From NCBI GenBank assembly GCA_964606895.1, contig CAZSHX010000003.1, positions 11,921 to 75,920 of the forward strand: a DNA stretch of 64,000 nt, written 5' to 3'. A program made the translations under genes and the position numbers. Below are positions 5,167-62,376 of this stretch, piece by piece; the first letter of the stretch is position 1; each line of letters begins with the position of its first letter. The notes beneath the pieces were generated by a model. It did no database searches. It saw nothing but the letters and a program-made list of their open reading frames with translations, and was not told where the DNA came from. The DNA is from an uncultured Hyphomicrobiales bacterium. Its GTDB lineage: Bacteria > Bacteroidota > Ignavibacteria > Kapaibacteriales > UBA2268.

Positions 5167-5419
5167 TGAACTGTGATTTATATGATTTGTTTGATTAAGA
5201 TGAAGATTAAAGAAGGATGTCTTAATTACGAATTTTTTGGATGAAAGGATTACACTGATTATTCAAGAATTTCTTCTCCTGAATCCTCCTAATCCTCAAA
5301 TCCGTTTAATCCGCGATTCAGATATTTGAATTGCAACGACTTTTAAGTCGTGGGAAGATGTTGAATATATCTAAACTTTGATTTATATGATTTGTTTGAT
5401 TAAGATGATGATTAAAGAT
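5167..5419. repeat. ~48-bp near-perfect direct repeats (5167-5214 and 5372-5419) flanking a ~157-bp segment that carries a MITE-like element
   Basis: Direct comparison: ctgaactgtgatttatatgatttgtttgattaagatgaagattaaaga versus ctaaactttgatttatatgatttgtttgattaagatgatgattaaaga. Confidence 0.7.
5243..5334. repeat. MITE/REP-like palindromic intergenic element (family shared with 17372-17475 and 38652-38804)
   Basis: Shared modules: aaaggattNcacNgattNttcaagaat on one side and aatccgcgattcagatatttgaattg on the other. Confidence 0.5.
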
Positions 5420-5542: not shown

Positions 5543-5594
5543 GAAAAAAGACTTCGAAAGTCTGACTGACAATCGAAGTCTAAATTTTTTTTTA
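5543..5594. terminator. Bidirectional rho-independent terminator, downstream of nuoB on the - strand and usable on the + strand
   Basis: Hairpin agacttcgaaagtct…cgaagtct with an A-run on one side (aagaaaaaag) and a T-run on the other (aaattttttttt). Confidence 0.6.
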
Positions 5595-5652
5595 GTTATT
5601 CTTAATCAACACCTAAACATCTTCCCAACTAAACAGCTAAGCACCTCAACAA

Positions 5653-7830: not shown

Positions 7831-8139
7831 TTTGACTCCAAAATTTATTATTGTCTTTTATAAACAAGCAATATAATGATTTAAGTTGAAAAGTAAAAAG
7901 CAACAAAAAGCAAATATGAGTTTTGAACCAAATAATTTGAAATAATATTCTTATTTGCTGAATTTATGTAGTTATGAATTCTTTTCAAGTAATTGAAATT
8001 ATTCATCAAAATAGACTGAATCCTTTTATCCAATAAGTTATGAATCAGAAAATCAAATTTTAAAATCTATAAAAGATTATTTCCTGATTTCCGGGTTTTA
8101 AACTAATACCATACCTCAAACTTCATATATTATTCGATT

Positions 8140-17135: not shown

Positions 17136-17371
17136 AATACAAATCTATATATTTGAATTAACTTTTCCAAATTATTTATCAAATTCTCTGAAAATTAACA
17201 ATCTTAAGCACTTTTCAGCGGCAGAATTTTCCTCCTGCCGTTTCTGCTGAGAGCAAACTTTTGATGTTCGTTTCAAACAACTTTTCTAAAGACGCATTTT
17301 TCACTTAAAAAGTTACAAGAAAAAAATATTTATTTTATTGAGGTAAATGGGGACTTCTTCTTAGACAAATA

Positions 17372-17475
17372 TTCTGAATCACGGATTCAACGGATTTTAG
17401 GACTAAGATGGATTTAGGAAATTCACTTGGAAAATTATAAAATCCTTTAACCCGACAAATCCGTGATTCAGATTT
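17372..17475. repeat. MITE-like element with perfect ~15-bp terminal inverted repeats (tctgaatcacggatt / aatccgtgattcaga)
   Basis: The inverted repeat is seen directly in the sequence. Located immediately 3' of the - strand gene that ends at 17487. Related copies at 5243-5334 and 38652-38804. Confidence 0.6.
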
Positions 17476-17486
17476 CTAAATTCTGG

Positions 17487-18974
17487 TCAGTCTTTAACAC
17501 ATCGAACTGATAACCCGTTTCCTTTAAAGTTGAAATATCTTTCAATATATCCAAAATCATTTTTCACGGCTCTTCTCCAAGCATCTGTGGGACTTTGGTC
17601 TGTTGAAGACCACCAATCACCAAAAATATTTAAATTTGAGAATTGACCATTTTTGTTTCTGTAGCCGCCAGGTAAAGCTGTAAATCCGGTTTCGTTAGTT
17701 GCTCCTTTGTTTGGACTTTTCCAATGTGATGTATCGGATTCTTTCATCTTTCCTCCTGCGACAAGCTGTCCACCTAAACAAGTTTCTAATTTTAGCCAAT
17801 CCGTTTCACTTGATACATGCCAACCGGAAGGTGCTAAACCACGAGAGTCATTAACGGCATACCAATTATATAACTTACCATAAATAGCACCTAAAGAGGG
17901 GTCATTATTGTAATAACACCAAGCTCCTGTTTTAAGGTTAACCCATGTAGCACTATCCCTTACTTCTGGTATTGGGTCGCCATTCCGAAAATGCTCAACA
18001 TCCAGGTTTCGATTTGCCCAATCAGTCACGCAAGGTTTTAAACTAATTATTTCAATATCAACCTCATTACTAATATTCCCACCTACTGAGATCCATACTT
18101 TCCCACTTTTCGCTTCATTTGGAACGATTACCATTATTAATGTTTCATTCCAGTTTAAATATTCTGTTGCTTTGATATTATTAAATGAAATAAAGTCAGT
18201 TTTTTGTCTGGAACCAAATCTTGTTCCGGTTATTGTAACCTTATCACCAATTTTTGAAGAATATGGATTTATTTTAGTTATTTGTAGAGTATTCTCGGGA
18301 TCAGTTGCTTTTACAGAAAATTCTACTTCATTGCTACTTATTTTATCTACGACAACCGTTATTCTTCCACTTGTAGCTCCAATTGGAACTTTGACTATTA
18401 TTAGTGTATCGTTCCAAATAACGAAATCCGTGGCTTGAGTCTTATTAAATAAAACAAGGCTTTTGTTCTGTGTGGAACCAAATCTGGTTCCTATTATTGA
18501 AACAGTATCGTTGATTTTTGCTGATTCAGGTATAATATTCGAGATTTGAAAAATGGTAAATACTTTGAAATCAACCTCATTACTCTTAATTCCATTTATA
18601 GTTCCCCAATTTTTTACTCCGAATTGTGATGTCATACCTTTTACACCGTTTAAAGTAATCCACAGTTTTCCACTTTTGGAATATTTTGGTAGAATGACTT
18701 TTATCATTGTATCACTCCAAAATTTGTATTGTGAAGCTTGAAGATCGTTGAAGTATAAAACACTTGAACCACGAGAAGATCCGAAATCACTACCAATAAC
18801 TGAAATAATATCGCCAATTTTAGCTGAATCGGGGATAATTCTAAAAATTTGAACTTTTTTCACAGGGTCAATCGGATTATCTTTTTTACAGCTAACTAAA
18901 AAAGTGAATACAATTAGAGAAAGTACTAAAAATTTGTGATTCATGATTCTATCCTTTATGTATAAATCAAACAC
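17487..18974 (-). CDS. Lipoprotein/secreted protein with three IPT/TIG-like Ig repeats and a C-terminal FISUMP domain
   Basis: Three repeats of the IGD..S..G..FGS…F motif. C-terminal FISUMP pattern (LYNWYAV…GWHV…GGKMKE…GATNETGFTALPGG…WSST…GLSVRCVKD). Confidence 0.65.
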   Translation of the reverse strand: MFDLYIKDRIMNHKFLVLSLIVFTFLVSCKKDNPIDPVKKVQIFRIIPDSAKIGDIISVIGSDFGSSRGSSVLYFNDLQASQYKFWSDTMIKVILPKYSKSGKLWITLNGVKGMTSQFGVKNWGTINGIKSNEVDFKVFTIFQISNIIPESAKINDTVSIIGTRFGSTQNKSLVLFNKTQATDFVIWNDTLIIVKVPIGATSGRITVVVDKISSNEVEFSVKATDPENTLQITKINPYSSKIGDKVTITGTRFGSRQKTDFISFNNIKATEYLNWNETLIMVIVPNEAKSGKVWISVGGNISNEVDIEIISLKPCVTDWANRNLDVEHFRNGDPIPEVRDSATWVNLKTGAWCYYNNDPSLGAIYGKLYNWYAVNDSRGLAPSGWHVSSETDWLKLETCLGGQLVAGGKMKESDTSHWKSPNKGATNETGFTALPGGYRNKNGQFSNLNIFGDWWSSTDQSPTDAWRRAVKNDFGYIERYFNFKGNGLSVRCVKD

Positions 18975-19180
18975 ATTTTTGCAAATTTATGAATTCTGTC
19001 ACACAATTCACCGGACCGATATCGAACAACAAATATAAAGACACATTAACCGCAAAAAAGTTACAAGAAAAAAATATTTTTTCTATTTTAAATATTTTTT
19101 AGTGTGAAAAGTAACTTTTTCCTTAATTTTTAGTCTATATATTATGACAATTTACAAAAATATTAATTTATGGTAAACAA

Positions 19181-22552: not shown

Positions 22553-24619
<2,067 letters not shown>

Positions 24620-24699
24620 GAGTTGAGGTTTTTAGACGGTTAGGTGTTTAGGTGGTAAAGAGTCATCCTTGTGTGTCTGCGGAGCAGACGGAGGTAGAT

Positions 24700-25535
24700 A
24701 ATCTTTCCCAAATTGCATCTTTTATTATTTCCCGAAAAAGATGCAATCAATTTTCAGCTAAACGGTTGATATTATTTCAAATAACAAAATTTTAACCATT
24801 GCATCATTGGATGCAAAATGATGCAAAGATGCAATTTTTGGATGTTTTTTCAAAGAACAGATTTGTATGTTCCGTAGGAACAACCTGTTTGTAGAAACCC
24901 AAAACATTTTAAACATCAAGCTCCGTAGGAGCGGACAGTTGAAATTATGAATTTGAATAATTAGATCGCTCCTACGGAGTTTTAATATTATATGGTCTAC
25001 TTTTCTACAAACAGTTGCTCCGCTGGAGCAATTCTCACTTCATTTTTCCCAATTTGCATTGCATCATCAAAAAATATAATTTAAAAAATGTAATTATTTA
25101 ACAGCTAACCTGTTGATATTATTTCAAATAACGATATTTTTCTCGTTGCATCTTTGGGCTAAAAAAGATGCAAAGATGCAATTTTTGGATGTTTTTTCAA
25201 AGAACACATTTGTATGTTCCATAGGAACAACCTGTTTGTAGAAACCCAAAACATTTTAAACATCAAGCTCCGTAGGAGCGGACAGTTGAAATTATGAATT
25301 TGAATAATTAGATCGCTCCTACGGAGTTTTAATATTATATGGTCTACTTTTCTACAAACAGTTGCTCCGCTGGAGCAATTCTCACTTCATTTTTCCCAAT
25401 TTGCATTGCATCATCAAAAAATATAATTTAAAAAATGTAATTATTTAACAGCTAACCTGTTGATATTATTTCAAATAACGATATTTTTCTCGTTGCATCT
25501 TTGGGCTAAAAAAGATGCAAAGATGCAAATTCTTA
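24700..25535. repeat. Tandem array of a ~346-bp structured repeat: a partial leading unit, two ~99%-identical full units (24821-25167 and 25168-25513) and a trailing stub
   Basis: Direct sequence comparison. Each unit contains multiple palindromes (gttccgtaggaac; ctccgtaggagcg…cgctcctacggag; ttgctccgctggagcaa; ggaacaacctgtttgtagaaa pairing at long range with tttctacaaacagttgctcc), plus the TTGCATCTTT…AAAGATGCAA hairpin and the GTTGATATTATTTCAAATAAC box. Confidence 0.85.
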
Positions 25536-25718
25536 CAGCCTTCTCCAAGAATAGGATGGGGTAAGGTTGACTTACTTTCAATGTACGAAATCAAAAGCAA
25601 TTAACGAAGATAACGATTATTTATTGCTATAAAATTGGAGTAATAATTTACTTCTTATTACAAGAATCGGCAGGTGGAGTTCCTGCCGATTTGGTAAATG
25701 CTGATTTTATAAACTCAT

Positions 25719-28004
25719 TTACGTCTTTACTAATTTTATTACGTGGACATAACCCATTGAAGAGAGCTTTACGATATAAACTCCCAATGGTAATGCAGAT
25801 ATATTATAGTTGAACTCTGATGTGGAACCATTATTGTTATCGTTTGCATAAGCAGATAAATCCATGACTTCGTCACCGAAAATATCCAATATTTTAAAAC
25901 TAAGCGGGCTATCCTTAACAGAATAAAGACCATATATTTTGAATTTTACTATATTTGAAACAGGATTTGGAGCTATACTAATAAAAAAGTAAGGATTAAA
26001 AATATTGACAGTTTCTTTAACAATATTAAGCGAATCCGGCATTTTTACACCCCTGATTAAGCGATTGTAGCCGTAAAGGAAAACAGTATCTTTATTCTTG
26101 ATTGTAATTCCTGAATAATCACAAGATCTTGCCCATCCCGACTTTGCAGGTATTTGTTCGCTTTGCCAATTTTTGCCTCCGTCGGTTGTTATAAAAACCG
26201 TGTCATTTATTGAGCCGGCAATGCCCAATTGAGAGTCTAAAAATTTCATTGATGAAATTCTATGCTTATTTGAGTCTAACTTCTGCCAATTCCAGCTTTG
26301 ACCACCGTCAGTGGTTACCAGCATATCATAACCCGAACCAAAAAGAAAACCGTTATTTTCATCTTTAAAGTAGGCATTATCAACATAGAGTCTGGCATTG
26401 CCAACTGTTGCAATTGTATCGAATGAATCGCCGCCGTTTTCGGTTTTTAGAACTCTGTACGCATTTCCATAAGGAAAATTTATTGTGTCGTCTGTCGGGT
26501 AGGCACCCTGCCTGCCGTGAATGAAGCCGACATCTTTTGTTTTGAAATCAACTTCCCAAAAATTCATCATATTTTTGGTAGATAATATAGCTTTTGTGAA
26601 CCAAGTCTCTCCTCCATCAGTCGTTTTGCTGAAATTCGAATCTGAAACGGCAAAGCCGGTTTCTTCTTCGGGAAAACTCAGCGAACGAGCTTTAATTTTA
26701 TCATTTGCTGTCCAAGCTAAACCACCGTCACTCGTAAATATTGTTAAATCTGCAAGATATTTGGGCGGTTGAAATTGTCTTTTGCCGACAAGGAAACCTT
26801 CTTTTTCTGATTTGAAATGATGAGCGAAAAGTGTTGAACCTCCAAATTTTAAATAATAATCTATGGAATCATAGGGGTAACTATGGTTGAACATAGTGCC
26901 GCCATCCACAGACCTGAATATATTGCTTTTTTCGCCATAAAACAAACATTCGTTTTCATTTAGAAATGCAAGGCCTGCCATATAAATCATCGTTGGTTGT
27001 ACTGTCATATCAAACCAGTTTACAAATTTAAAGTTATTGCCGTAATCAGTTGATTTAACAATACTATGGTTAAATCCAAGATAATATATTGTGCCGTTAT
27101 CTAATGCAGATATTGAATTAATTAAAACCGACTCAGGATATACATTCAGGTAATCCTTTGTTGTTAGTTCGGTATTGCTAAAAGTTTTAAAGAAATCATC
27201 TGTTTTAAATACTCCTTTCCAACCGAATAATAATACCTTTTGGGGTCCATACATTTTGGCACCAACCCAATATTCCCATAAATCCAATTTAACTGTATCC
27301 CATGTTTGCCCGCCGTCGGTAGTAGTATAAGTCAGTGAACGATGACCAAGACTATCCATGCCGCCGATAACTCCATGATTTATATCAAAAAAATCAACTG
27401 CACAAAGCTGAAATAACTTATTATGGTTTTGAAATATGCTTGTCCAGTTATCTCCGCCGTCAACGGTTTTGAAGGCAAAATTATGCTCACCTACTGTATA
27501 GCCTGTCTTGTCGTCTATGAATTTTATTCTTTTCAGGCAGGTGCTGTCATTCTCAAATTTCAGAACCCAGTTCTTTCCGCCGTCTGTTGTTTTGTAGATA
27601 ACACCTCTGTCGCCTACAGCAATTATGTTATTATTATCAATCATTTTTACTGCAAATAACCTTTTATTCCCAACTTTTTGTGAAGTCCATGTTTTGCCGG
27701 AATTCTGAGTGGAAAGAACGTAACCGCTGTCGCCCACAGCAAAACCGTTATTCGTATCTGTAAAACTAACAGACATTAAATTTGCCCGGATGTATGATTC
27801 CTGCCATTTCCACTTAACTCCGCCGTCATAGGACCTAAGAATTTTTCCATCATTACCGACAAGATAGAAATTCAGGGAATCAATTAATAAGATTTCTTTT
27901 TCATCTGCAGAAATGTTCTGCCATATAAATTTAGCATGACTTGGGTTTGGGAATAGATATAGGATTACAAGAAAAATGTAAAAAACAGTTTTTAAAGTTT
28001 TCAT
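25719..28004 (-). CDS. BNR/Sortilin-type beta-propeller repeat protein with a T9SS C-terminal sorting domain
   Basis: Many S/T-x-D-G-G-x-(T/N)-W repeats (YDGGVKW, TDGGKNW, VDGGDNW, TDGGQTW, TDGGETW, TDGGQSW, TDGGKNW). Signal peptide. C-terminal Por-type tail. Confidence 0.7.
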   Translation of the reverse strand: MKTLKTVFYIFLVILYLFPNPSHAKFIWQNISADEKEILLIDSLNFYLVGNDGKILRSYDGGVKWKWQESYIRANLMSVSFTDTNNGFAVGDSGYVLSTQNSGKTWTSQKVGNKRLFAVKMIDNNNIIAVGDRGVIYKTTDGGKNWVLKFENDSTCLKRIKFIDDKTGYTVGEHNFAFKTVDGGDNWTSIFQNHNKLFQLCAVDFFDINHGVIGGMDSLGHRSLTYTTTDGGQTWDTVKLDLWEYWVGAKMYGPQKVLLFGWKGVFKTDDFFKTFSNTELTTKDYLNVYPESVLINSISALDNGTIYYLGFNHSIVKSTDYGNNFKFVNWFDMTVQPTMIYMAGLAFLNENECLFYGEKSNIFRSVDGGTMFNHSYPYDSIDYYLKFGGSTLFAHHFKSEKEGFLVGKRQFQPPKYLADLTIFTSDGGLAWTANDKIKARSLSFPEEETGFAVSDSNFSKTTDGGETWFTKAILSTKNMMNFWEVDFKTKDVGFIHGRQGAYPTDDTINFPYGNAYRVLKTENGGDSFDTIATVGNARLYVDNAYFKDENNGFLFGSGYDMLVTTDGGQSWNWQKLDSNKHRISSMKFLDSQLGIAGSINDTVFITTDGGKNWQSEQIPAKSGWARSCDYSGITIKNKDTVFLYGYNRLIRGVKMPDSLNIVKETVNIFNPYFFISIAPNPVSNIVKFKIYGLYSVKDSPLSFKILDIFGDEVMDLSAYANDNNNGSTSEFNYNISALPLGVYIVKLSSMGYVHVIKLVKT

Positions 28005-30847: not shown

Positions 30848-31207
30848 TTAAATTACGTCATCGTCGTCATCTATATCGTCTTCGTCATCGTCATCTTCGT
30901 CGAAAAGAGAGTCGAAATCTTGTTCGTAGCCTTCTTCTTCAAGTTCATCTTCAAATTCCTCGTCCAATTCTTCAATAATTTCGTCCTCGTCCAGTTCGTC
31001 AAAATCATCATCATCTAAATCATCGTCATCTTCTTCTTCATCATAAAGATCGTCTTCTTCCCATTTAGTTGGTGAGAGCATCATTGATAAAGAAAAGCCG
31101 TCGCTGTGGTCGAATGACAAGAAATCATCTGACTCGATTTCTCCAAAACTCATTTCATCTTGTTTCATTAAATCATCTCCAATTATTATCAAATTTTGTT
31201 TTCTCAA
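30848..31207 (-). CDS. Hyper-acidic low-complexity protein (C-terminal ~75 aa almost entirely D/E)
   Basis: 119-aa ORF between the GT2 gene and the hypothetical gene on the same strand. Long runs such as EEEDDDDLDDDDFDELDEDE and DEDDDDEDDIDDDDD. Confidence 0.5.
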   Translation of the reverse strand: MRKQNLIIIGDDLMKQDEMSFGEIESDDFLSFDHSDGFSLSMMLSPTKWEEDDLYDEEEDDDDLDDDDFDELDEDEIIEELDEEFEDELEEEGYEQDFDSLFDEDDDDEDDIDDDDDVI

Positions 31208-31291
31208 GAATTATTTATCGGATATTATTTCAAAAAATCAAATTAATATTTTAATAAACTGCAAAATTAAAAAAAAAAGAATTAAATCAAA

Positions 31292-33784: not shown

Positions 33785-33890
33785 CGAGCAATTTATTTCA
33801 AATATGATGGTTGGGGGAAAAGTTGGGAATTGTGATAATGCAAAGCAGAAGTTGCATCTTTTTTACCTAAAAGATGCAAGAGATGCAATG
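33785..33890. repeat. Degenerate single copy of the hairpin-plus-box repeat core
   Basis: aatttatttcaaatatgatgg followed ~40 bp later by ttgcatcttttttacctaaaagatgcaagagatgcaa. Confidence 0.5.
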
Positions 33891-37368: not shown

Positions 37369-37637
37369 ATTAGTTTTAACTAAACAAAATAATATTTTTT
37401 ATATTGTAAAAATTTGATTTTTTTTAGATTTTACCGACGATATTTTATTTCCAATCATTTCATTCTGATAATATGCAGGACAGTAGGTAATACCAAGCCT
37501 TATTCTTTCTTGTAATTATCTTTCTCAAAACGAAGAATCAATTTTAAGTTTCAAAATGTGCAATTAATCCTTCGAAGGCAAAGAACACGAAATAGCAAGC
37601 CCAATTTAACAATTAGGAGCTTTAACTTTACAATCGC

Positions 37638-38351
37638 CTAATAGCCTGTAGATAAAGACAAAAACTGAAAAACAAGCAAAAATTCCGATAATTTCAGAAA
37701 AACACGTTTTGTGAAAAAGAAATAAAATATGAGGCTGAAATTGTCTAATAATCGAATTTGAAAACGCCAAATGCAGTTGAGAATCCAAGATAAGAAGAAA
37801 TTTGAGTTGGCAAGGGACTGTTTAGGTGTTCCAATGCCGAATAACTTTCTCATAAGAAGAGAAAGGTTGTAGCTCGCCACAGCGATTCTATATCGCTTCA
37901 GTATGTTTTCGTTTTTGCTAAGAGTGGTTCTTTGCTGACCGCCTGAGTCAAGTACTTGAGCAAAACTTCGCTCAACCTGCGATCCGCGTAGTCCCAGAAG
38001 TGCCTTACCTTCCTTGCTTTTTACTTCGGCTTTTGCGAAACGCAGTGGTATTCTTTCTTCAATAGTAAGCTTTTCCAGATTACGATTGTAAATGAAGTCG
38101 GGAATTACTGTCATAACGTCCATATCATGAATTGCTTGAATCTCAGTCGCTTTAAAATATCCTTTGTCCGATGTAACTGTCTGAATCTGTAAAACAGTTG
38201 TAGGGTCTTCAGCTATGTCGTTAAGTCTGATCTGGGCATTAATAATACGTTCGGAAAGCTCGCTTGAATCGGCTTGATTACAGTGAAGCATGTTTACTTC
38301 TATTATTGCACCTGTGACAGGGGCAACATTAAGGTCAAATTTTGAGTTCAT
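37638..38351 (-). CDS. DDE transposase (IS4/IS5 type; short, possibly catalytic core only)
   Basis: DxGY motif (TSDKGYF) and R-x3-E-x6-K-like C1 region (RGSQVERSFAQV). The ORF runs into the terminal IR. Confidence 0.65.
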   Translation of the reverse strand: MNSKFDLNVAPVTGAIIEVNMLHCNQADSSELSERIINAQIRLNDIAEDPTTVLQIQTVTSDKGYFKATEIQAIHDMDVMTVIPDFIYNRNLEKLTIEERIPLRFAKAEVKSKEGKALLGLRGSQVERSFAQVLDSGGQQRTTLSKNENILKRYRIAVASYNLSLLMRKLFGIGTPKQSLANSNFFLSWILNCIWRFQIRLLDNFSLIFYFFFTKRVFLKLSEFLLVFQFLSLSTGY

Positions 38352-38491
38352 GAGTGGGAATCCACATTGATGTTTGTTTTGGTATCTTTTTCTTCTTAAT
38401 CATTATGATCTTCGATATTTGTTATATATTTTATACCATTAAGACTTAAATCGTGTTTATTGTTGTATTGATTAATCAACAGGCTCTTAAA
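37638..38491 (-). mobile_element. IS element, 854 bp, IS4/IS5-superfamily (IS1031-group-like size), copy 1
   Basis: 100% identical to 55188..56041. Imperfect terminal IRs TAATAGCCTGTAGAT / TAAGAGCCTGTTGAT. Both copies are flanked by TAA (TNA-type target duplication, or the element termini). Single transposase ORF. Confidence 0.75.
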
Positions 38492-38651
38492 CTCTTCAAC
38501 AATAAAGCAACTAAAACCTCAACTCTTTGAAATACATAATTCTTCTCTTCCGTACAGGACGGAACTTCTTGGGCAGTTTTTTTTTCTACCGAGCTTTTGT
38601 CACTACGTCACAATGAAAATTGTTGATTATCGAGGATTGAGCTTGGGAATG

Positions 38652-38804
38652 TCTGAATCGCAGATTATTTGGTTTAAAGGATTCCACGGATTTTCAAGAA
38701 TATATTGGAAAGATGTCCTACATGTGCCAGATGTAGGACATCTGATAAACATATCCTCTTAATCCCGAAATCCTTTTAATCAGTGATTCAGAAATTTGAA
38801 TTGG
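38652..38804. repeat. MITE-like element (ctgaatcgcagatt … aatcagtgattcagaa TIRs) containing a nested 12-bp-stem hairpin
   Basis: TIR similarity to 17372-17475. Internal hairpin gatgtcctacatgtgccagatgtaggacatc, also found at 43064. Confidence 0.5.
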
Positions 38805-43028: not shown

Positions 43029-43063
43029 CTTTTTATTGGATATCAGAGATTTTTTTTATAAGA

Positions 43064-43096
43064 TGCCCTACATCTGCCAGATGTAGGACATCTTTA
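43064..43096. repeat. REP-like hairpin (gatgccctacatctgccagatgtaggacatc) between convergent genes; probable terminator
   Basis: Near-identical to the hairpin at 38714-38746. Confidence 0.55.
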
Positions 43097-55187: not shown

Positions 55188-55901
55188 CTAATAGCCTGTA
55201 GATAAAGACAAAAACTGAAAAACAAGCAAAAATTCCGATAATTTCAGAAAAACACGTTTTGTGAAAAAGAAATAAAATATGAGGCTGAAATTGTCTAATA
55301 ATCGAATTTGAAAACGCCAAATGCAGTTGAGAATCCAAGATAAGAAGAAATTTGAGTTGGCAAGGGACTGTTTAGGTGTTCCAATGCCGAATAACTTTCT
55401 CATAAGAAGAGAAAGGTTGTAGCTCGCCACAGCGATTCTATATCGCTTCAGTATGTTTTCGTTTTTGCTAAGAGTGGTTCTTTGCTGACCGCCTGAGTCA
55501 AGTACTTGAGCAAAACTTCGCTCAACCTGCGATCCGCGTAGTCCCAGAAGTGCCTTACCTTCCTTGCTTTTTACTTCGGCTTTTGCGAAACGCAGTGGTA
55601 TTCTTTCTTCAATAGTAAGCTTTTCCAGATTACGATTGTAAATGAAGTCGGGAATTACTGTCATAACGTCCATATCATGAATTGCTTGAATCTCAGTCGC
55701 TTTAAAATATCCTTTGTCCGATGTAACTGTCTGAATCTGTAAAACAGTTGTAGGGTCTTCAGCTATGTCGTTAAGTCTGATCTGGGCATTAATAATACGT
55801 TCGGAAAGCTCGCTTGAATCGGCTTGATTACAGTGAAGCATGTTTACTTCTATTATTGCACCTGTGACAGGGGCAACATTAAGGTCAAATTTTGAGTTCA
55901 T
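55188..55901 (-). CDS. DDE transposase (identical to the one at 37638..38351)
   Basis: Identical 237-aa ORF. Confidence 0.65.
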   Translation of the reverse strand: MNSKFDLNVAPVTGAIIEVNMLHCNQADSSELSERIINAQIRLNDIAEDPTTVLQIQTVTSDKGYFKATEIQAIHDMDVMTVIPDFIYNRNLEKLTIEERIPLRFAKAEVKSKEGKALLGLRGSQVERSFAQVLDSGGQQRTTLSKNENILKRYRIAVASYNLSLLMRKLFGIGTPKQSLANSNFFLSWILNCIWRFQIRLLDNFSLIFYFFFTKRVFLKLSEFLLVFQFLSLSTGY

Positions 55902-56041
55902 GAGTGGGAATCCACATTGATGTTTGTTTTGGTATCTTTTTCTTCTTAATCATTATGATCTTCGATATTTGTTATATATTTTATACCATTAAGACTTAAA
56001 TCGTGTTTATTGTTGTATTGATTAATCAACAGGCTCTTAAT
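55188..56041 (-). mobile_element. IS element copy 2 (identical to 37638..38491, same orientation)
   Basis: 854/854 identity by direct comparison. Inserted 9 bp after the stop of the - strand gene ending at 56050. Confidence 0.75.
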
Positions 56042-57357: not shown

Positions 57358-57453
57358 TTACATATATATTTTTAAGATTTTAAAGACGCAATGAAATAAA
57401 TTTATTTGAAATAATAATATAAACATCAGAATCGTCAATGTATTTTTGCATTA

Positions 57454-58197: not shown

Positions 58198-58485
58198 TAT
58201 TGTATATCTTTCTTCTTTTTCCGTTCCGTTAGTTTTTAAAGTTGACTTCTAAACTATTCATTTTTTCAATACAATTCCCAAATTGCATCTTTTTGTTTTT
58301 TTTCAAAAAAGCTACAATGTCATTTCGATTCATAACTCATTCGGGTATTATTTTCATCGGGTTAGAACATCAGTTCCAATGACCTTTTTTAATTCCCTGC
58401 CATGACCAATCTTCTTCTTCATTAACAGAATTAGATATTGTTGAAAAAAAATATGTATTTTTGTACTTATTTTTTGAACTGAATT

Positions 58486-60800: not shown

Positions 60801-61184
60801 AGTAATGAAGATATACAAAGAAAAGGCTTGAAAAAATTCTCAAACATATTATCTACAATCTCCTGGCTGATAAAGCATGGTTGATACCTCCATTTCGTCA
60901 GCAGTTACTATCAGTTTGTGATGCTCCGGGTTCTATACCGCCATTGGACAGCACCGAACAACAACCACAGTTTCGGCTACAACGGCATGGAAAAGGACGA
61001 CAAAGTGATTGGGCTGGGGAAATTGATTCAGGCATAATCGGATTAAAATGATGAATCATGAAAAGAAGTTGAATATTACCTCTTTTCCATAGCAATAATT
61101 AATCATGCTTTTCGTTTATATTTTGTGAGTTCTCGTTCTTTGACAGTTTGTCAACCTCACCCCGACATTCATGGAGAAGAGGTA

Positions 61185-61600
61185 AAAATTGCATCTTTGC
61201 ATCTTTTTCAGCACAAAGATGCAATTGACAAAAAGTCGTTATTTGAAATAATATCAATAGGTTAGATAATAATTGCATTGCATGTTTTTTTGAAAAAAAA
61301 TAAAAGTGCAAAGATGCAATGAAGGAAATCCGATTTCGCGTAGCGATTGAATATAGAACGAACATTTGCCGTCGTATTTATATTTAACCCCTGACGGGGT
61401 TAAGGATTTTTTTGGGTTCTATGTGTTACAGATATTCATTCCCTACGGGAATCGGAAGAATGAAAAACAACCATAAATTGCATCTTTTTGCATTCAAAGA
61501 TGCAATGGCTCAAAACTCGTTATTTGAAATAATATCAATAGGTTATGCGGTTTACTTACTGCATTTTCTTAAGTAAAAAAAAGATGCAATTTGGGGAAAA
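61185..61600. repeat. Two diverged units (~290 bp apart, 61190 and 61480) of the hairpin-plus-box structured repeat family, inside a ~1.07-kb gene-free region
   Basis: ttgcatctttgcatctttttcagcacaaagatgcaattgacaaaaagtcgttatttgaaataatatcaataggttag and ttgcatctttttgcattcaaagatgcaatggctcaaaactcgttatttgaaataatatcaataggttatg. Intervening palindromes aacccctgacggggtt and attccctacgggaat. Confidence 0.8.
61385..61414 (+). terminator. Strong terminator-like hairpin inside the repeat region
   Basis: ttaacccctgacggggttaa followed by ggattttttt. Confidence 0.5.
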
Positions 61601-61869
61601 TGAAGAAAAAAGAAGTGGTTAGACGCGTGTTTAATCAAGATTTAAAAATCCAACGCTTATACGATTTTCAATTCTAAATTCACAATTTCTCCTCTTTACC
61701 CTCTCCCTCGTCCTTCAGCCCTTGTGCGATAATAAGTTGAGATGTTTAGTTTCTTAGGCGTTTAGATGTTGAATGAATAAATAAATCTCCCAAAATTGAT
61801 TTTAGAATCAGCCAATCTATTAATCCAAAAAAAAAATTTCCAAAAATAAATATTTTTTTGGAAATTTAA

Positions 61870-62376
61870 TTGTTTTTTCATAATTTAGTTGTATATGCAA
61901 CTGTTGTATTACCAACTAATATTATTATGGACGAATTTCAAAATATGGATAAATCAATAGGCTTCCATCTGGGGCATACTTTCAGAATGGTTAAGTCTGT
62001 TATGAACAAAGTATTTCAGGAAAATGGTTACAATATCACTTCAGACCAATGGCAGATTCTGATGTGTCTTTGGGGCAAGGACGGCAAAACTCAGCAGGAA
62101 GTAACTCAATTTGTAACAAAAGAAAAAGCTACAGTAACAAGATTGATTGACGGGCTTGAAAAAAGGAATCTTTTCATTCGCGTTCAGGACAAAACCGACC
62201 GCAGAAAAAATCTGCTCTATCTGACCGACGAAGCTAAACAATTGAAAGACAAGCTGATGCCTATCGCTACAAAAACTTTGGATATTGCCGTTAAAGGATT
62301 TGAGGAATCCGAAATCGAAATGCTTAAATCATTGCTTATTCGTGTTCAGGAAAATCTAAAAGTTTTTGAAAAATAA
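61870..62376 (+). CDS. MarR family transcriptional regulator
   Basis: Winged-HTH MarR pattern (LTSDQWQILMCLW…QQEVTQFVTKEKATVTRLIDGLEKRNLFIRVQDKTDRRKNLLYLTDE). The likely start is the Met at ~61927. Confidence 0.8.
   Translation: MFFHNLVVYATVVLPTNIIMDEFQNMDKSIGFHLGHTFRMVKSVMNKVFQENGYNITSDQWQILMCLWGKDGKTQQEVTQFVTKEKATVTRLIDGLEKRNLFIRVQDKTDRRKNLLYLTDEAKQLKDKLMPIATKTLDIAVKGFEESEIEMLKSLLIRVQENLKVFEK

Follow-up and report, generated by a model that had tools for sequence, protein, structure and literature searches.

A mosaic, palindrome-rich intergenic repeat family with a recent tandem duplication in an uncultured Kapaibacteriales bacterium

A tandem repeat was studied in a 64-kb stretch of DNA from an uncultured bacterium placed by GTDB in the Kapaibacteriales (assembly GCA_964606895.1, contig CAZSHX010000003.1, positions 11,921 to 75,920; hereafter the window, to which the copy counts of the repeat family refer). 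The repeat, here called array 1, lies between the gene ligA and a gene encoding a BNR/Sortilin-type protein. [quoted passage not shown] The basic element would be a lineage-specific, modular, palindrome-rich and intergenic A-B-A-C unit of about 550 nucleotides (nt). One B-A unit was duplicated when two A modules recently underwent unequal crossover at their right ends, and this produced the 347-bp tandem repeat. The hairpins of the element may act as transcription stops or as stabilisers of RNA ends between genes.

Tandem Repeats Finder reported one array at 24755–25528 with a period of 347 nt and 2.2 copies. When each base was compared with the base 347 nt further on, the segments 24822–25181 and 25169–25528 differed in 2 of 360 nt, corresponding to 99.4% identity; the two unit-distinguishing substitutions are at 24860 and 24874. 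The number of units is taken from short-read assemblies and is to be read as at least 2. The first-pass annotation of this DNA, which was made from the letters without database searches, had described two near-identical units filled with inverted repeats between convergent genes. All of this holds: the intergenic gap (24620–25718, 1099 nt) separates ligA on the plus strand from the BNR gene on the minus strand, and each of the listed inverted repeats is present at its place. A long-range pair given there as about 20 bp is perfect over 13 bp, and its extension requires one indel and one mismatch. The partial unit described at the left end is not a truncated near-identical unit; it is a diverged A module sharing about 70–83% identity with the other A copies.

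From its sequence, array 1 reads as A0-B-A1-B-A2-C and not as a string of equivalent units (Table 1). Module A, about 150 nt long, consists of a left hairpin (P1, AAATTGCATCTTTT ... AAAAGATGCAAT), a core and a right hairpin (P2, TTGCATCTTT ... AAAGATGCAA), and AATTGCATCTTT/AAAGATGCAATT hairpins thus stand on both sides of a near-invariant A/T-rich core. P2 starts exactly 13 nt past the core, and its 3′ arm is duplicated (AAAGATGCAAAGATGCAA). The ttgcatcttt...aaagatgcaa hairpins of the array are found here. The ends of module A are inverted and of the TTGCAT type, and those of the family can also be given as CCAAATTGCATCTTT-type. A0 is bounded by the terminal inverted repeat AAATTGCATCTTT ... 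AAAGATGCAATTT, whose arms match at 13 of 13 positions and lie 102 nt apart, and in A1 and A2 each end carries a doubled TTGCAT motif. Module B is a long foldback. It begins with the mini-hairpin gttccGTAggaac (gttcc-GTA-ggaac), which is followed by the arm CTGTTTGTAGAAA. Then come the two arms of a 16-bp inverted pair, which enclose a 33-nt loop and each form a gctcc-GTA-ggagc mini-hairpin of their own, and the module is completed by the arm TTTCTACAAACAG and the mini-hairpin gctccGCTggagc (gctcc-GCT-ggagc). When both strands were searched with nhmmer, module B was found only in array 1. The motif YCCGTAGGR is confined to array 1 and to the second array described below. The array ends with the weakly structured tail module C.

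The origin of the duplication can be read from the middle A module. The left part of A1 equals that of A2, and from about 25169 on A1 equals the right part of A0, including TTTTTGGATG, which is absent from A2. The break-points of identity coincide with the AAAGATGCAAAGATGCAA shared by the modules. Because A1 is a hybrid of this kind, the comparison shows that one unequal crossover in AAAGATGCAAAGATGCAA turned A0-B-A2-C into A0-B-(A2/A0 hybrid)-B-A2-C. With 2 substitutions in 360 nt the duplication is recent, in agreement with the earlier suggestion that the near-identity of the units reflects a recent event. The ancestral form is presumed to be A-B-A-C, which is still the layout of the second locus. 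As the crossover explains the array, selection for an array need not be invoked, and the array as such, on which the first-pass annotation had centred, is secondary.

The two-unit array is also present in a separate metagenome assembly (L002), in the order A0-B-A1-B-A2 and with the same two unit-specific single-nucleotide polymorphisms (SNPs). It follows that no single assembly created the tandem repeat as an artefact. Some features of the data could be taken to mean that the duplication, or the near-identity of its units, was created by short-read assembly of a repeat: the coverage of the related contigs is low (about 4–6x), a stretch of Ns interrupts array 1 in a third assembly (L001), contigs break at the repeats, and a replaced block in L002 is identical in both units. 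It is nevertheless extremely improbable that the array arose in this way, as two assemblies with different strain alleles agree on the order of the modules and share both unit-distinguishing SNPs, and three A modules with distinct flanks anchor this order. Breaks and gaps at family repeats are seen in further independent short-read assemblies. The contig of L016 begins just upstream of the second array, that of L024 terminates right after the lone P2 hairpin at 33.8 kb, and the contig of the closest relative stops shortly after ligA.

L002 is 100% identical to the window over ligA, the array and the BNR gene save for one 160-nt block, which has 81% identity and contains indels. This block, the right half of B and the left part of A, occurs in both units (3808–3966 of L002 and the next unit, corresponding to 24976–25132 and 25323–25479 of the window). 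Part of it is closer to the second array (88%), and with it the P1 hairpin is again a perfect one of 10 bp. Judged by its sequence, the block probably came from another member of the family by recombination and was then homogenised between the units; another possibility is that common reads were used for both units in the assembly. If the former holds, homologous recombination among family members would keep reshuffling and homogenising the copies.

The second copy of the element, A3-B′-A4-C′ (array 2), is inverted relative to array 1. Using blastn, 25038–25656 was aligned to 61605–61063 with 63.8% identity over 627 nt. The tail of array 2 is identical to module C at 98 of 145 positions (68%) and was recovered by nhmmer with an E-value of 4.5e-39. 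The sequence of array 2 is the same in the independent assembly L016. Altogether, the window contains five full A modules at the two loci and partial A modules at about 33.8, 57.4 and 58.3 kb. Three assemblies have the copy at 33.8 kb with identical sequence, one of them ending at its hairpin, and no empty site was seen among them. The heptamer GATGCAA has 25 intergenic matches, all of them within family elements, and 13 matches in 56 kb of coding DNA against about 7 expected. A DNA uptake signal (DUS/USS) was considered for this motif and was rejected on account of this distribution. The motif AAGATGCAA occurs 23 times in the window, where 1.7 matches are expected.

The best conserved part of the family is the core TTGATATTATTTCAAATAAC, which is invariant in 5 copies against 0.08 expected. 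With a few flanking bases (CTAACCTRTTGATATTATTTCAAATAACGA) it is near-invariant, and the remaining element is only about 64% conserved. We suggest that the core may be a protein-binding site, either as a promoter reading toward the P1/B side or as a site for a DNA-bending protein, or both, and that the A remnants upstream of genes may consequently supply promoter activity. The reverse complement of the core, GTTATTTGAAATAATATCAAYAGGTTAG, holds TGaAATAAT, which is similar to an extended −10 element, and also TAATAT, in agreement with the RpoD −7 motif TA[ATC][ATC][AT]T described in Chlorobaculum tepidum (bioRxiv 10.1101/172254). The 13-mer TTTGAAATAATAT has 9 matches against 1.05 expected, and three copies outside the arrays are intergenic and directed toward a downstream gene. 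Remnants of the core are found in sense orientation upstream of two genes. One of them, at 57382–57417, lies 37 nt upstream of the start of an esterase gene (57454) and points toward this gene. The other is the TTTGAAATAATAT copy at 31222–31234, upstream of the open reading frame (ORF) 30848–31207; by derivation, it would lie a few tens of nt before the start if the shorter gene call of assembly L022 is right. The −35 position is not conserved among the A copies. A crude survey of TAnnTTTG and TAnAAT upstream of 28 genes gave no clear strand-specific enrichment and no clear promoter consensus for this organism, and the promoter reading of the core is therefore tentative.

The same reverse complement, written as GTTATTTGAAATAA-TATCAAYAGGTTAG, consists of an A/T tract followed by a match to the consensus WATCAANNNNTTR of integration host factor (IHF), and this holds in 5 of 5 copies. 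The matching segment, TATCAAYAGGTTA, fits the consensus exactly; the consensus is proteobacterial and may not be that of the host. The layout of the module also allows an architectural or regulatory DNA element of the host to be considered, in which A would serve as a platform bound by an HU/IHF-like protein and flanked by palindromic sites for dimeric factors. By analogy with the RIP/BIME-1 elements of Escherichia coli, which have the form REP-IHF site-REP (REP, repetitive extragenic palindrome), such an element might organise the nucleoid or insulate transcription units. The P2 stem, which is conserved in sequence and not merely in pairing, would suit this explanation, as would the five IHF matches and a module whose centre is more conserved than its ends. 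We regard it as improbable, however, since the IHF pattern is not enriched window-wide (11 matches against 10.8 expected), 5 of these 11 are copies of a single core sequence, the match is a single post-hoc one to a proteobacterial consensus in an A/T-rich core, and several copies of the family are partial or decayed.

The hairpins provide the basis for the proposed effects at transcription boundaries. Terminator-like sites number 8, against 0.8 expected. P2 of A0 has a 12-bp stem on the plus strand (−13.5 kcal/mol) followed by U5, and a comparable structure is formed by P2 of A1 (Table 1). From its sequence, P2 with U5 looks like a reasonable intrinsic terminator for transcription derived from ligA. 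The hairpin of B′ with its T7 tract, likewise on sequence grounds, looks like a textbook match to an intrinsic terminator; the homologous position in B has a hairpin with a broken T-run. The P2 stem varies only in A0, where two changes compensate each other (TTGCATCaTT/AAtGATGCAA). In several copies P1 has decayed. B and B′ have a common layout of flanking GTA mini-hairpins, long-range arms and a central hairpin, and their arms are unrelated in sequence. The stems of their mini-hairpins correspond through compensated changes (GTTCC/GGAAC with ATTCCC/GGGAAT, and GCTCC/GGAGC with AACCCC/GGGGTT). The changes within array 1 and in L002 fall in loops and spare the stems: GTA is replaced by ATA in the second B copy and GCT by TCC. 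The near-invariant core, the sequence-conserved P2 and the shared architecture of B and B′ argue that at least core, P2 and the B foldback are maintained, perhaps by selection or by palindrome-templated repair. The independent sequences available for these comparisons are two of B and effectively four of A.

The first-pass annotation had favoured a structured non-coding RNA gene array or a cruciform-forming element over simple satellite DNA, and this interpretation as a whole is partly supported. Indeed, the locus is not simple satellite DNA and is unusually structured. One unit folds with −99 kcal/mol (z −8.3) on the plus strand and with −96.9 kcal/mol (z −6.8) on the minus strand. The RNA gene array fared less well, given that both strands fold about equally and that the clues to the strand conflict. 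Rfam 15 gave no match at the gathering thresholds in the whole window; at E-values up to 10, the locus returned only noise far below threshold, mostly matches to hairpins of the miRNA-precursor type. The coding potential at the locus is limited to short ORFs that are not conserved, and the differences between paralogues show no third-codon-position bias. A scan for tRNA and tmRNA genes found none. Extrusion of a cruciform from duplex DNA is unlikely on general grounds, inasmuch as cruciforms are not expected to form from arms 33–104 nt apart or from stems of 5 bp, the values found for the long arms and the mini-hairpins, respectively.

A more specific version of the RNA hypothesis deserves attention. 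The elements could be a family of structured small RNA (sRNA) genes, in which the core is the promoter and a long, branched hairpin RNA of about 150–190 nt is transcribed from the minus strand in array 1 and the plus strand in array 2. This RNA would comprise the P1 part of A together with B and would end at the central B hairpin, the palindromic P2 upstream might bind a regulator, and the tandem duplication would be a simple gain of one gene copy, comparable to known tandem sRNA arrays. Under this hypothesis, A-B would represent new sRNA genes with a near-invariant promoter core and a palindromic operator, the architecture but not the sequence of which is kept between paralogues, and the cassette would have been co-opted upstream of protein genes. 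The invariance of the core with its TGaAATAAT and TAATAT in 5 copies agrees with this. So does array 2, where a match to TTGACA-16-AATAAT (11 of 12 positions, with TG) is followed on the same strand, about 150 nt on, by a strong terminator, and where the interval between the two folds with a z-score of −2.8. Further points in its favour are the compensated mini-hairpin stems within an architecture kept at about 60% identity, the loop-only changes in unit 2 and L002, and the sense-oriented core remnants upstream of two genes. We nevertheless consider the hypothesis unlikely, if worth keeping in mind. The lack of Rfam families and the equal folding of both strands, which is expected of DNA palindromes, count against it, and so do the non-conserved −35 region and the corresponding terminator of array 1, which has no clean U-run. 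The best terminator of array 2 is on the strand equivalent to the minus strand of array 1, but G-U-only pairs in C, like P2 with its U5, speak for the plus strand of array 1. P1, which would be inside the RNA, is decayed in several copies, and only two independent B sequences are available for covariation.

The mini-hairpins of module B raise the question of a relationship to REP or REPIN elements, which would be moved as single-stranded hairpins by a Y1 transposase (REP-associated tyrosine transposase, RAYT, or IS200-like) encoded elsewhere, with B as a cluster of units. C-GNA-G triloops are very stable in single-stranded DNA, and the mini-hairpins have the form YC-GTA-GR, with GTAG in 5 of 7. 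Two of them form an inverted doublet with 16-bp arms and 33 nt between, similar to a REPIN, and REP clusters which reiterate together with flanking DNA have been described (PMC3733652). REPs, however, are palindromes of 20–40 bp with stems of mostly 6–9 bp and a GTAG/CGTC tag that sits beyond the stem at one end (PMC3733652). In the present mini-hairpins, GTA makes up the loop, the G after it begins the 3′ stem and no terminal tag stands outside the stem; they measure 13–17 nt and their stems only 5 bp. In addition, the mini-hairpin motif is found only inside the two arrays in 64 kb, no Y1 transposase is encoded among the 43 window ORFs scanned, and GTAG repeats have not been reported for Bacteroidetes or Chlorobi. 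An origin of this kind is thus very improbable, and assignment to the REP superfamily (GTAG/CGTC) was rejected on tag geometry and short stems.

Other classes of repeats were also considered and rejected. As already concluded in the first-pass annotation, the repeat anatomy excludes a CRISPR array: the period is 347 nt, the units are 99.4% identical throughout, and neither short repeats nor unique spacers are present. A replication origin does not agree with two copies, no skew switch and no DnaA-type context. Integron attC sites, retron RNA and prophage att sites are unsupported, with no integrase or reverse transcriptase domain among the same 43 ORFs.

The family is, as far as can be seen among the collections searched, restricted to this organism. 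A search of 185,579 species genomes with the 20-nt core gave 9 matches, all attributable to chance. The pattern core-N13-TTGCATC had one chance match, inside a gene, in the JGI metagenomes, and the hairpin pattern had four chance matches, inside genes, among the IMG/VR viral contigs. No match was obtained with blastn against plasmids and phages. A protein search with a spurious 88-aa ORF spanning A4 and C′ returned only this ORF itself. The ligA loci of the nearest relatives, with 64–69% LigA identity, have neither the element nor synteny. The best non-self LigA match has 69% identity, and the named matches are metagenome-assembled genomes labelled Ignavibacteria, Kapaibacteria, Bacteroidota or FCB (Fibrobacteres-Chlorobi-Bacteroidetes) group.

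Several observations weigh against the proposed mosaic MITE/BIME-like family. Neither target-site duplications nor empty sites nor a cognate transposase were found in the window and in the three assemblies covering the 33.8-kb copy, and no direct repeats are evident at the boundaries of A, of the lone copy or of the composite elements. It is the centre of A and not its termini that is best conserved, which is unusual for a MITE driven by a transposase and argues for a function under selection. The foldback is common to B and B′ although their arms are almost completely different. Neutral decay would not yield this pattern, which suggests selection on structure, in RNA or single-stranded DNA, or templated repair of the palindromes. 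Within the window, B occurs only between A modules and never alone. Finally, relatives are missing from every collection searched, so that the family stands without comparative support beyond its paralogues and one strain variant.

The coordinates of the modules, of their parts and of the surrounding features are collected in Table 1.

Table 1. Modules, dispersed copies and neighbouring features in the 64-kb window
Feature	Position	Strand	Remarks
ligA	22553–24619	+	left flank of the array 1 gap
Gene-proximal hairpin GTCTGC-gga-GCAGAC	24674–24694	+	between ligA stop and array; −8.5 kcal/mol; outside the repeat family
Module A0, diverged	24701–24850	+	nhmmer A profile, E 3.9e-46
P1 of A0	24710–24749	+	
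Core of A0	24766–24785	+	invariant
P2 of A0	24797–24840	+	
Module B, copy 1	24851–25041	+	long foldback, 191 nt
Mini-hairpin gttccgtaggaac	24869–24881		unit 2 reads gttccAtaggaac
Long-range pair ctgtttgtagaaa / tttctacaaacag	24885–24897, 25002–25014		13 bp perfect
Inverted pair aagctccgtaggagcg / cgctcctacggagttt	24918–24933, 24967–24982		13 bp perfect, 16 bp at 94%
Inverted repeat ttgctccgctggagcaa	25015–25031		
Module A1, hybrid	25042–25197	+	offset-347 comparison
Core of A1	25113–25132	+	
P2 of A1	25144–25187	+	12-bp stem, then TTTTT; RNAfold −16.5 kcal/mol
Module B, copy 2	25198–25388	+	two differences from copy 1, matching 24860 and 24874, the latter in a loop
Module A2, last A copy	25389–25528	+	P2 without the T-run present after A0 and A1
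Core of A2	25460–25479	+	
Module C, tail, 136 nt	25529–25664	+	weakly structured; consensus folds
Gene-proximal hairpin AATCGGCAGG...CCTGCCGATT	25661–25692	-	just past the BNR gene stop; −16 to −18 kcal/mol; outside the repeat family
BNR/Sortilin-type protein with type IX secretion system (T9SS) sorting tail	25719–28004	-	right flank of the array 1 gap
Lone degenerate half-A	33793–33889	+	between convergent genes; core-like TTATTTCAAATAT, P2 with duplicated 3′ arm
A-core remnant	57382–57417	-	AAAGACGCAAT...TTATTTGAAATAATAA on the window + strand
Degenerate A fragment	58248–58353	+	P1-type hairpin AAATTGCATCTTTTTG...CAAAAAAGCTACAAT
Second copy, A3-B′-A4-C′	61056–61608	-	inverted relative to array 1; nhmmer, blastn
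Core in array 2	61238–61257	-	
B′ terminator TTTAACCCCTGACGGGGTTAAG, then T7	61383–61415	+	hairpin 61383–61404
Core in array 2	61519–61538	-	
Element of about 110 nt, four sites	5207–5333, 8000–8054, 17361–17482, 38647–38803		inverted-repeat ends; outside the repeat family

The window itself is ordinary chromosome, with nuoAB, pgk, ruvA, lnt, peptidases and T9SS cargo proteins. Array 2 lies among unrelated genes and is bordered on one side by a 161-aa ORF and an Rhs-core-like fragment and on the other by a MarR regulator and an efflux operon. The fragment is the short ORF 60918–61037, located just upstream of the array. Its C-terminal sequence ...HSFGYNGMEKDDKVIGLGKLIQA resembles the conserved core motif of Rhs/YD-repeat toxins. 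The ORF could be an orphan Rhs fragment; it has no Pfam match and follows the 161-aa ORF, likewise without a Pfam match. On the other side, the palindrome TTTCCAAAAATAAATATTTTTTTGGAAA at 61838–61866 stands immediately upstream of the MarR gene (61870–62376) and is distinct from the repeat family. The MarR gene precedes genes for an outer-membrane factor and an RND adaptor, and the palindrome may be a MarR operator. A G/T-rich motif, GTTGAGGT..TTAGGTGTTTAGGTG, was noticed at 24621–24659, at 61735–61773 and, as reverse complement, at 5591–5638; two of these places directly follow a stop codon, that of ligA or that of nuoB, and the third is beside array 2. A distant relative (L020) has a loosely similar TTAGAC/TGTAGG run after ligA.

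The only transposase-like sequence of the window is a 237-aa ORF, a C-terminal fragment of the IS1182 family whose ends are unrelated to the repeats. It is encoded by an 853-nt segment present twice at 100% identity (37638–38490 and 55188–56040). The ORF matches NF033551 with an E-value of 1.2e-7 over profile positions 425–487 of 488, and the boundary of the repeat is exactly at the stop codon. The segment may be a recently duplicated, truncated insertion sequence remnant or an assembly effect.

All-against-all comparison of the 8 kb of intergenic DNA in the window revealed at least three other small repeat families. One is a MITE-like element of about 110 nt, which has CTGAATCACGGATT ... AATCCGTGATTCAG as its terminal inverted repeats and is found at four sites. 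Another is a 33-nt palindrome, AGATGTCCTACATCTGGCAGATGTAGGACATCT, which is nested in the 110-nt element at 38688–38765 and stands alone at 43038–43095, downstream of pgk between convergent genes. Since the palindrome lies within the 110-nt element, insertion of one repeat into another has taken place. Other short repeats are present as well. Two direct repeats of about 67 nt (17273–17339 and 19022–19087; 79% identity overall and 94% over 33 nt) flank a Fib_succ_major/TIG-domain gene (17487–18974); a related 33-nt piece is at 37383–37415. With these further families in the intergenic DNA of the window, mosaic and mutually nested small repeats appear to be a general property of the intergenic DNA of this genome.

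The repeats described here document a modular palindromic family from a part of the FCB group that has been poorly sampled and for which such elements have hardly been described. They provide a clean example of tandem amplification by unequal crossover together with block replacement between repeat copies, and they account for the breaks that assemblies of this organism show at these sites. Should the core turn out to be a portable promoter or a DNA-bending site, the family would represent a lineage-specific distribution of transcription signals, as is the case for Correia elements in Neisseria. B foldbacks that give rise to discrete RNAs would constitute a new sRNA family. None of these outcomes would alter a general principle.

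Tandem sRNA gene arrays are known, for example NsiR1 in Nostoc and LhrC1-5 in Listeria. Like these, array 1 is built of units in head-to-tail order, and every unit could contain a promoter-like core, a hairpin RNA and a terminator-like end. Unlike these, array 1 stems from a single and very recent duplication, its second locus has a single B, and its strand is ambiguous. Among the E. coli BIMEs, BIME-1 (RIP) has the layout REP-IHF site-REP and BIME-2 is tandemly reiterated. Module A resembles BIME-1 in its succession of hairpin, bending site and hairpin. More generally, the family shares with the BIMEs a mosaic of palindromic units and linker motifs, the tandem reiteration of composite units and the preference for the 3′ ends of genes (PMC2817692, PMC3333891). 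It differs in its units of 347 bp instead of roughly 80 bp, in its A/T-rich hairpins without a terminal GTAG tag, in the phylum of the host and in that no RAYT was found among the 43 ORFs scanned.

MITEs are known to contain IHF sites, outward promoters and terminator-like hairpins, to cluster and to insert into one another (PMC2229807, PMC10969869, PMC4596501). Module A has the terminal inverted repeats, the small size and the dispersed copies in the window that characterise MITEs, and it lacks a conserved ORF. The Correia/NEMIS elements of Neisseria are the MITEs to which it can be compared directly. As in these, A is a non-coding intergenic sequence of about 150 nt with terminal inverted repeats, promoter-like sequences and, at its centre, a sequence that fits the IHF consensus (PMC2229807, PMC10969869), and its transcript would form a hairpin. 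In contrast to Correia/NEMIS, A shows no TA or other target-site duplication, its centre is better conserved than its ends, it is always accompanied by B and C modules or present as fragments, and the sequences are not similar. The MITE called BrickBuilt in Porphyromonas gingivalis, also a member of the Bacteroidota, is likewise species-restricted and strictly intergenic and is composed of a leader, an internal tandem repeat and a tail (PMC4596501). BrickBuilt has small inverted-repeat ends and promoter activity (PMC4596501). Its internal repeat, however, is a 23-nt minisatellite and not a 347-nt composite, and it has no sequence similarity to the family.

The modular construction is also reminiscent of the BOX elements of pneumococci, in which a variable number of middle modules gives the layout boxA-boxBn-boxC. 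The pneumococcal BOX, RUP and SPRITE elements are comparable in the modularity of BOX, in the terminator-like nature of SPRITE and in their clustering and insertion into one another (PMC10969869). The sizes and sequences of the modules differ from those found here, where the host belongs to the FCB group. Assigned to no named family, the repeats of the window are a lineage-specific addition to the modular palindromic intergenic repeats.

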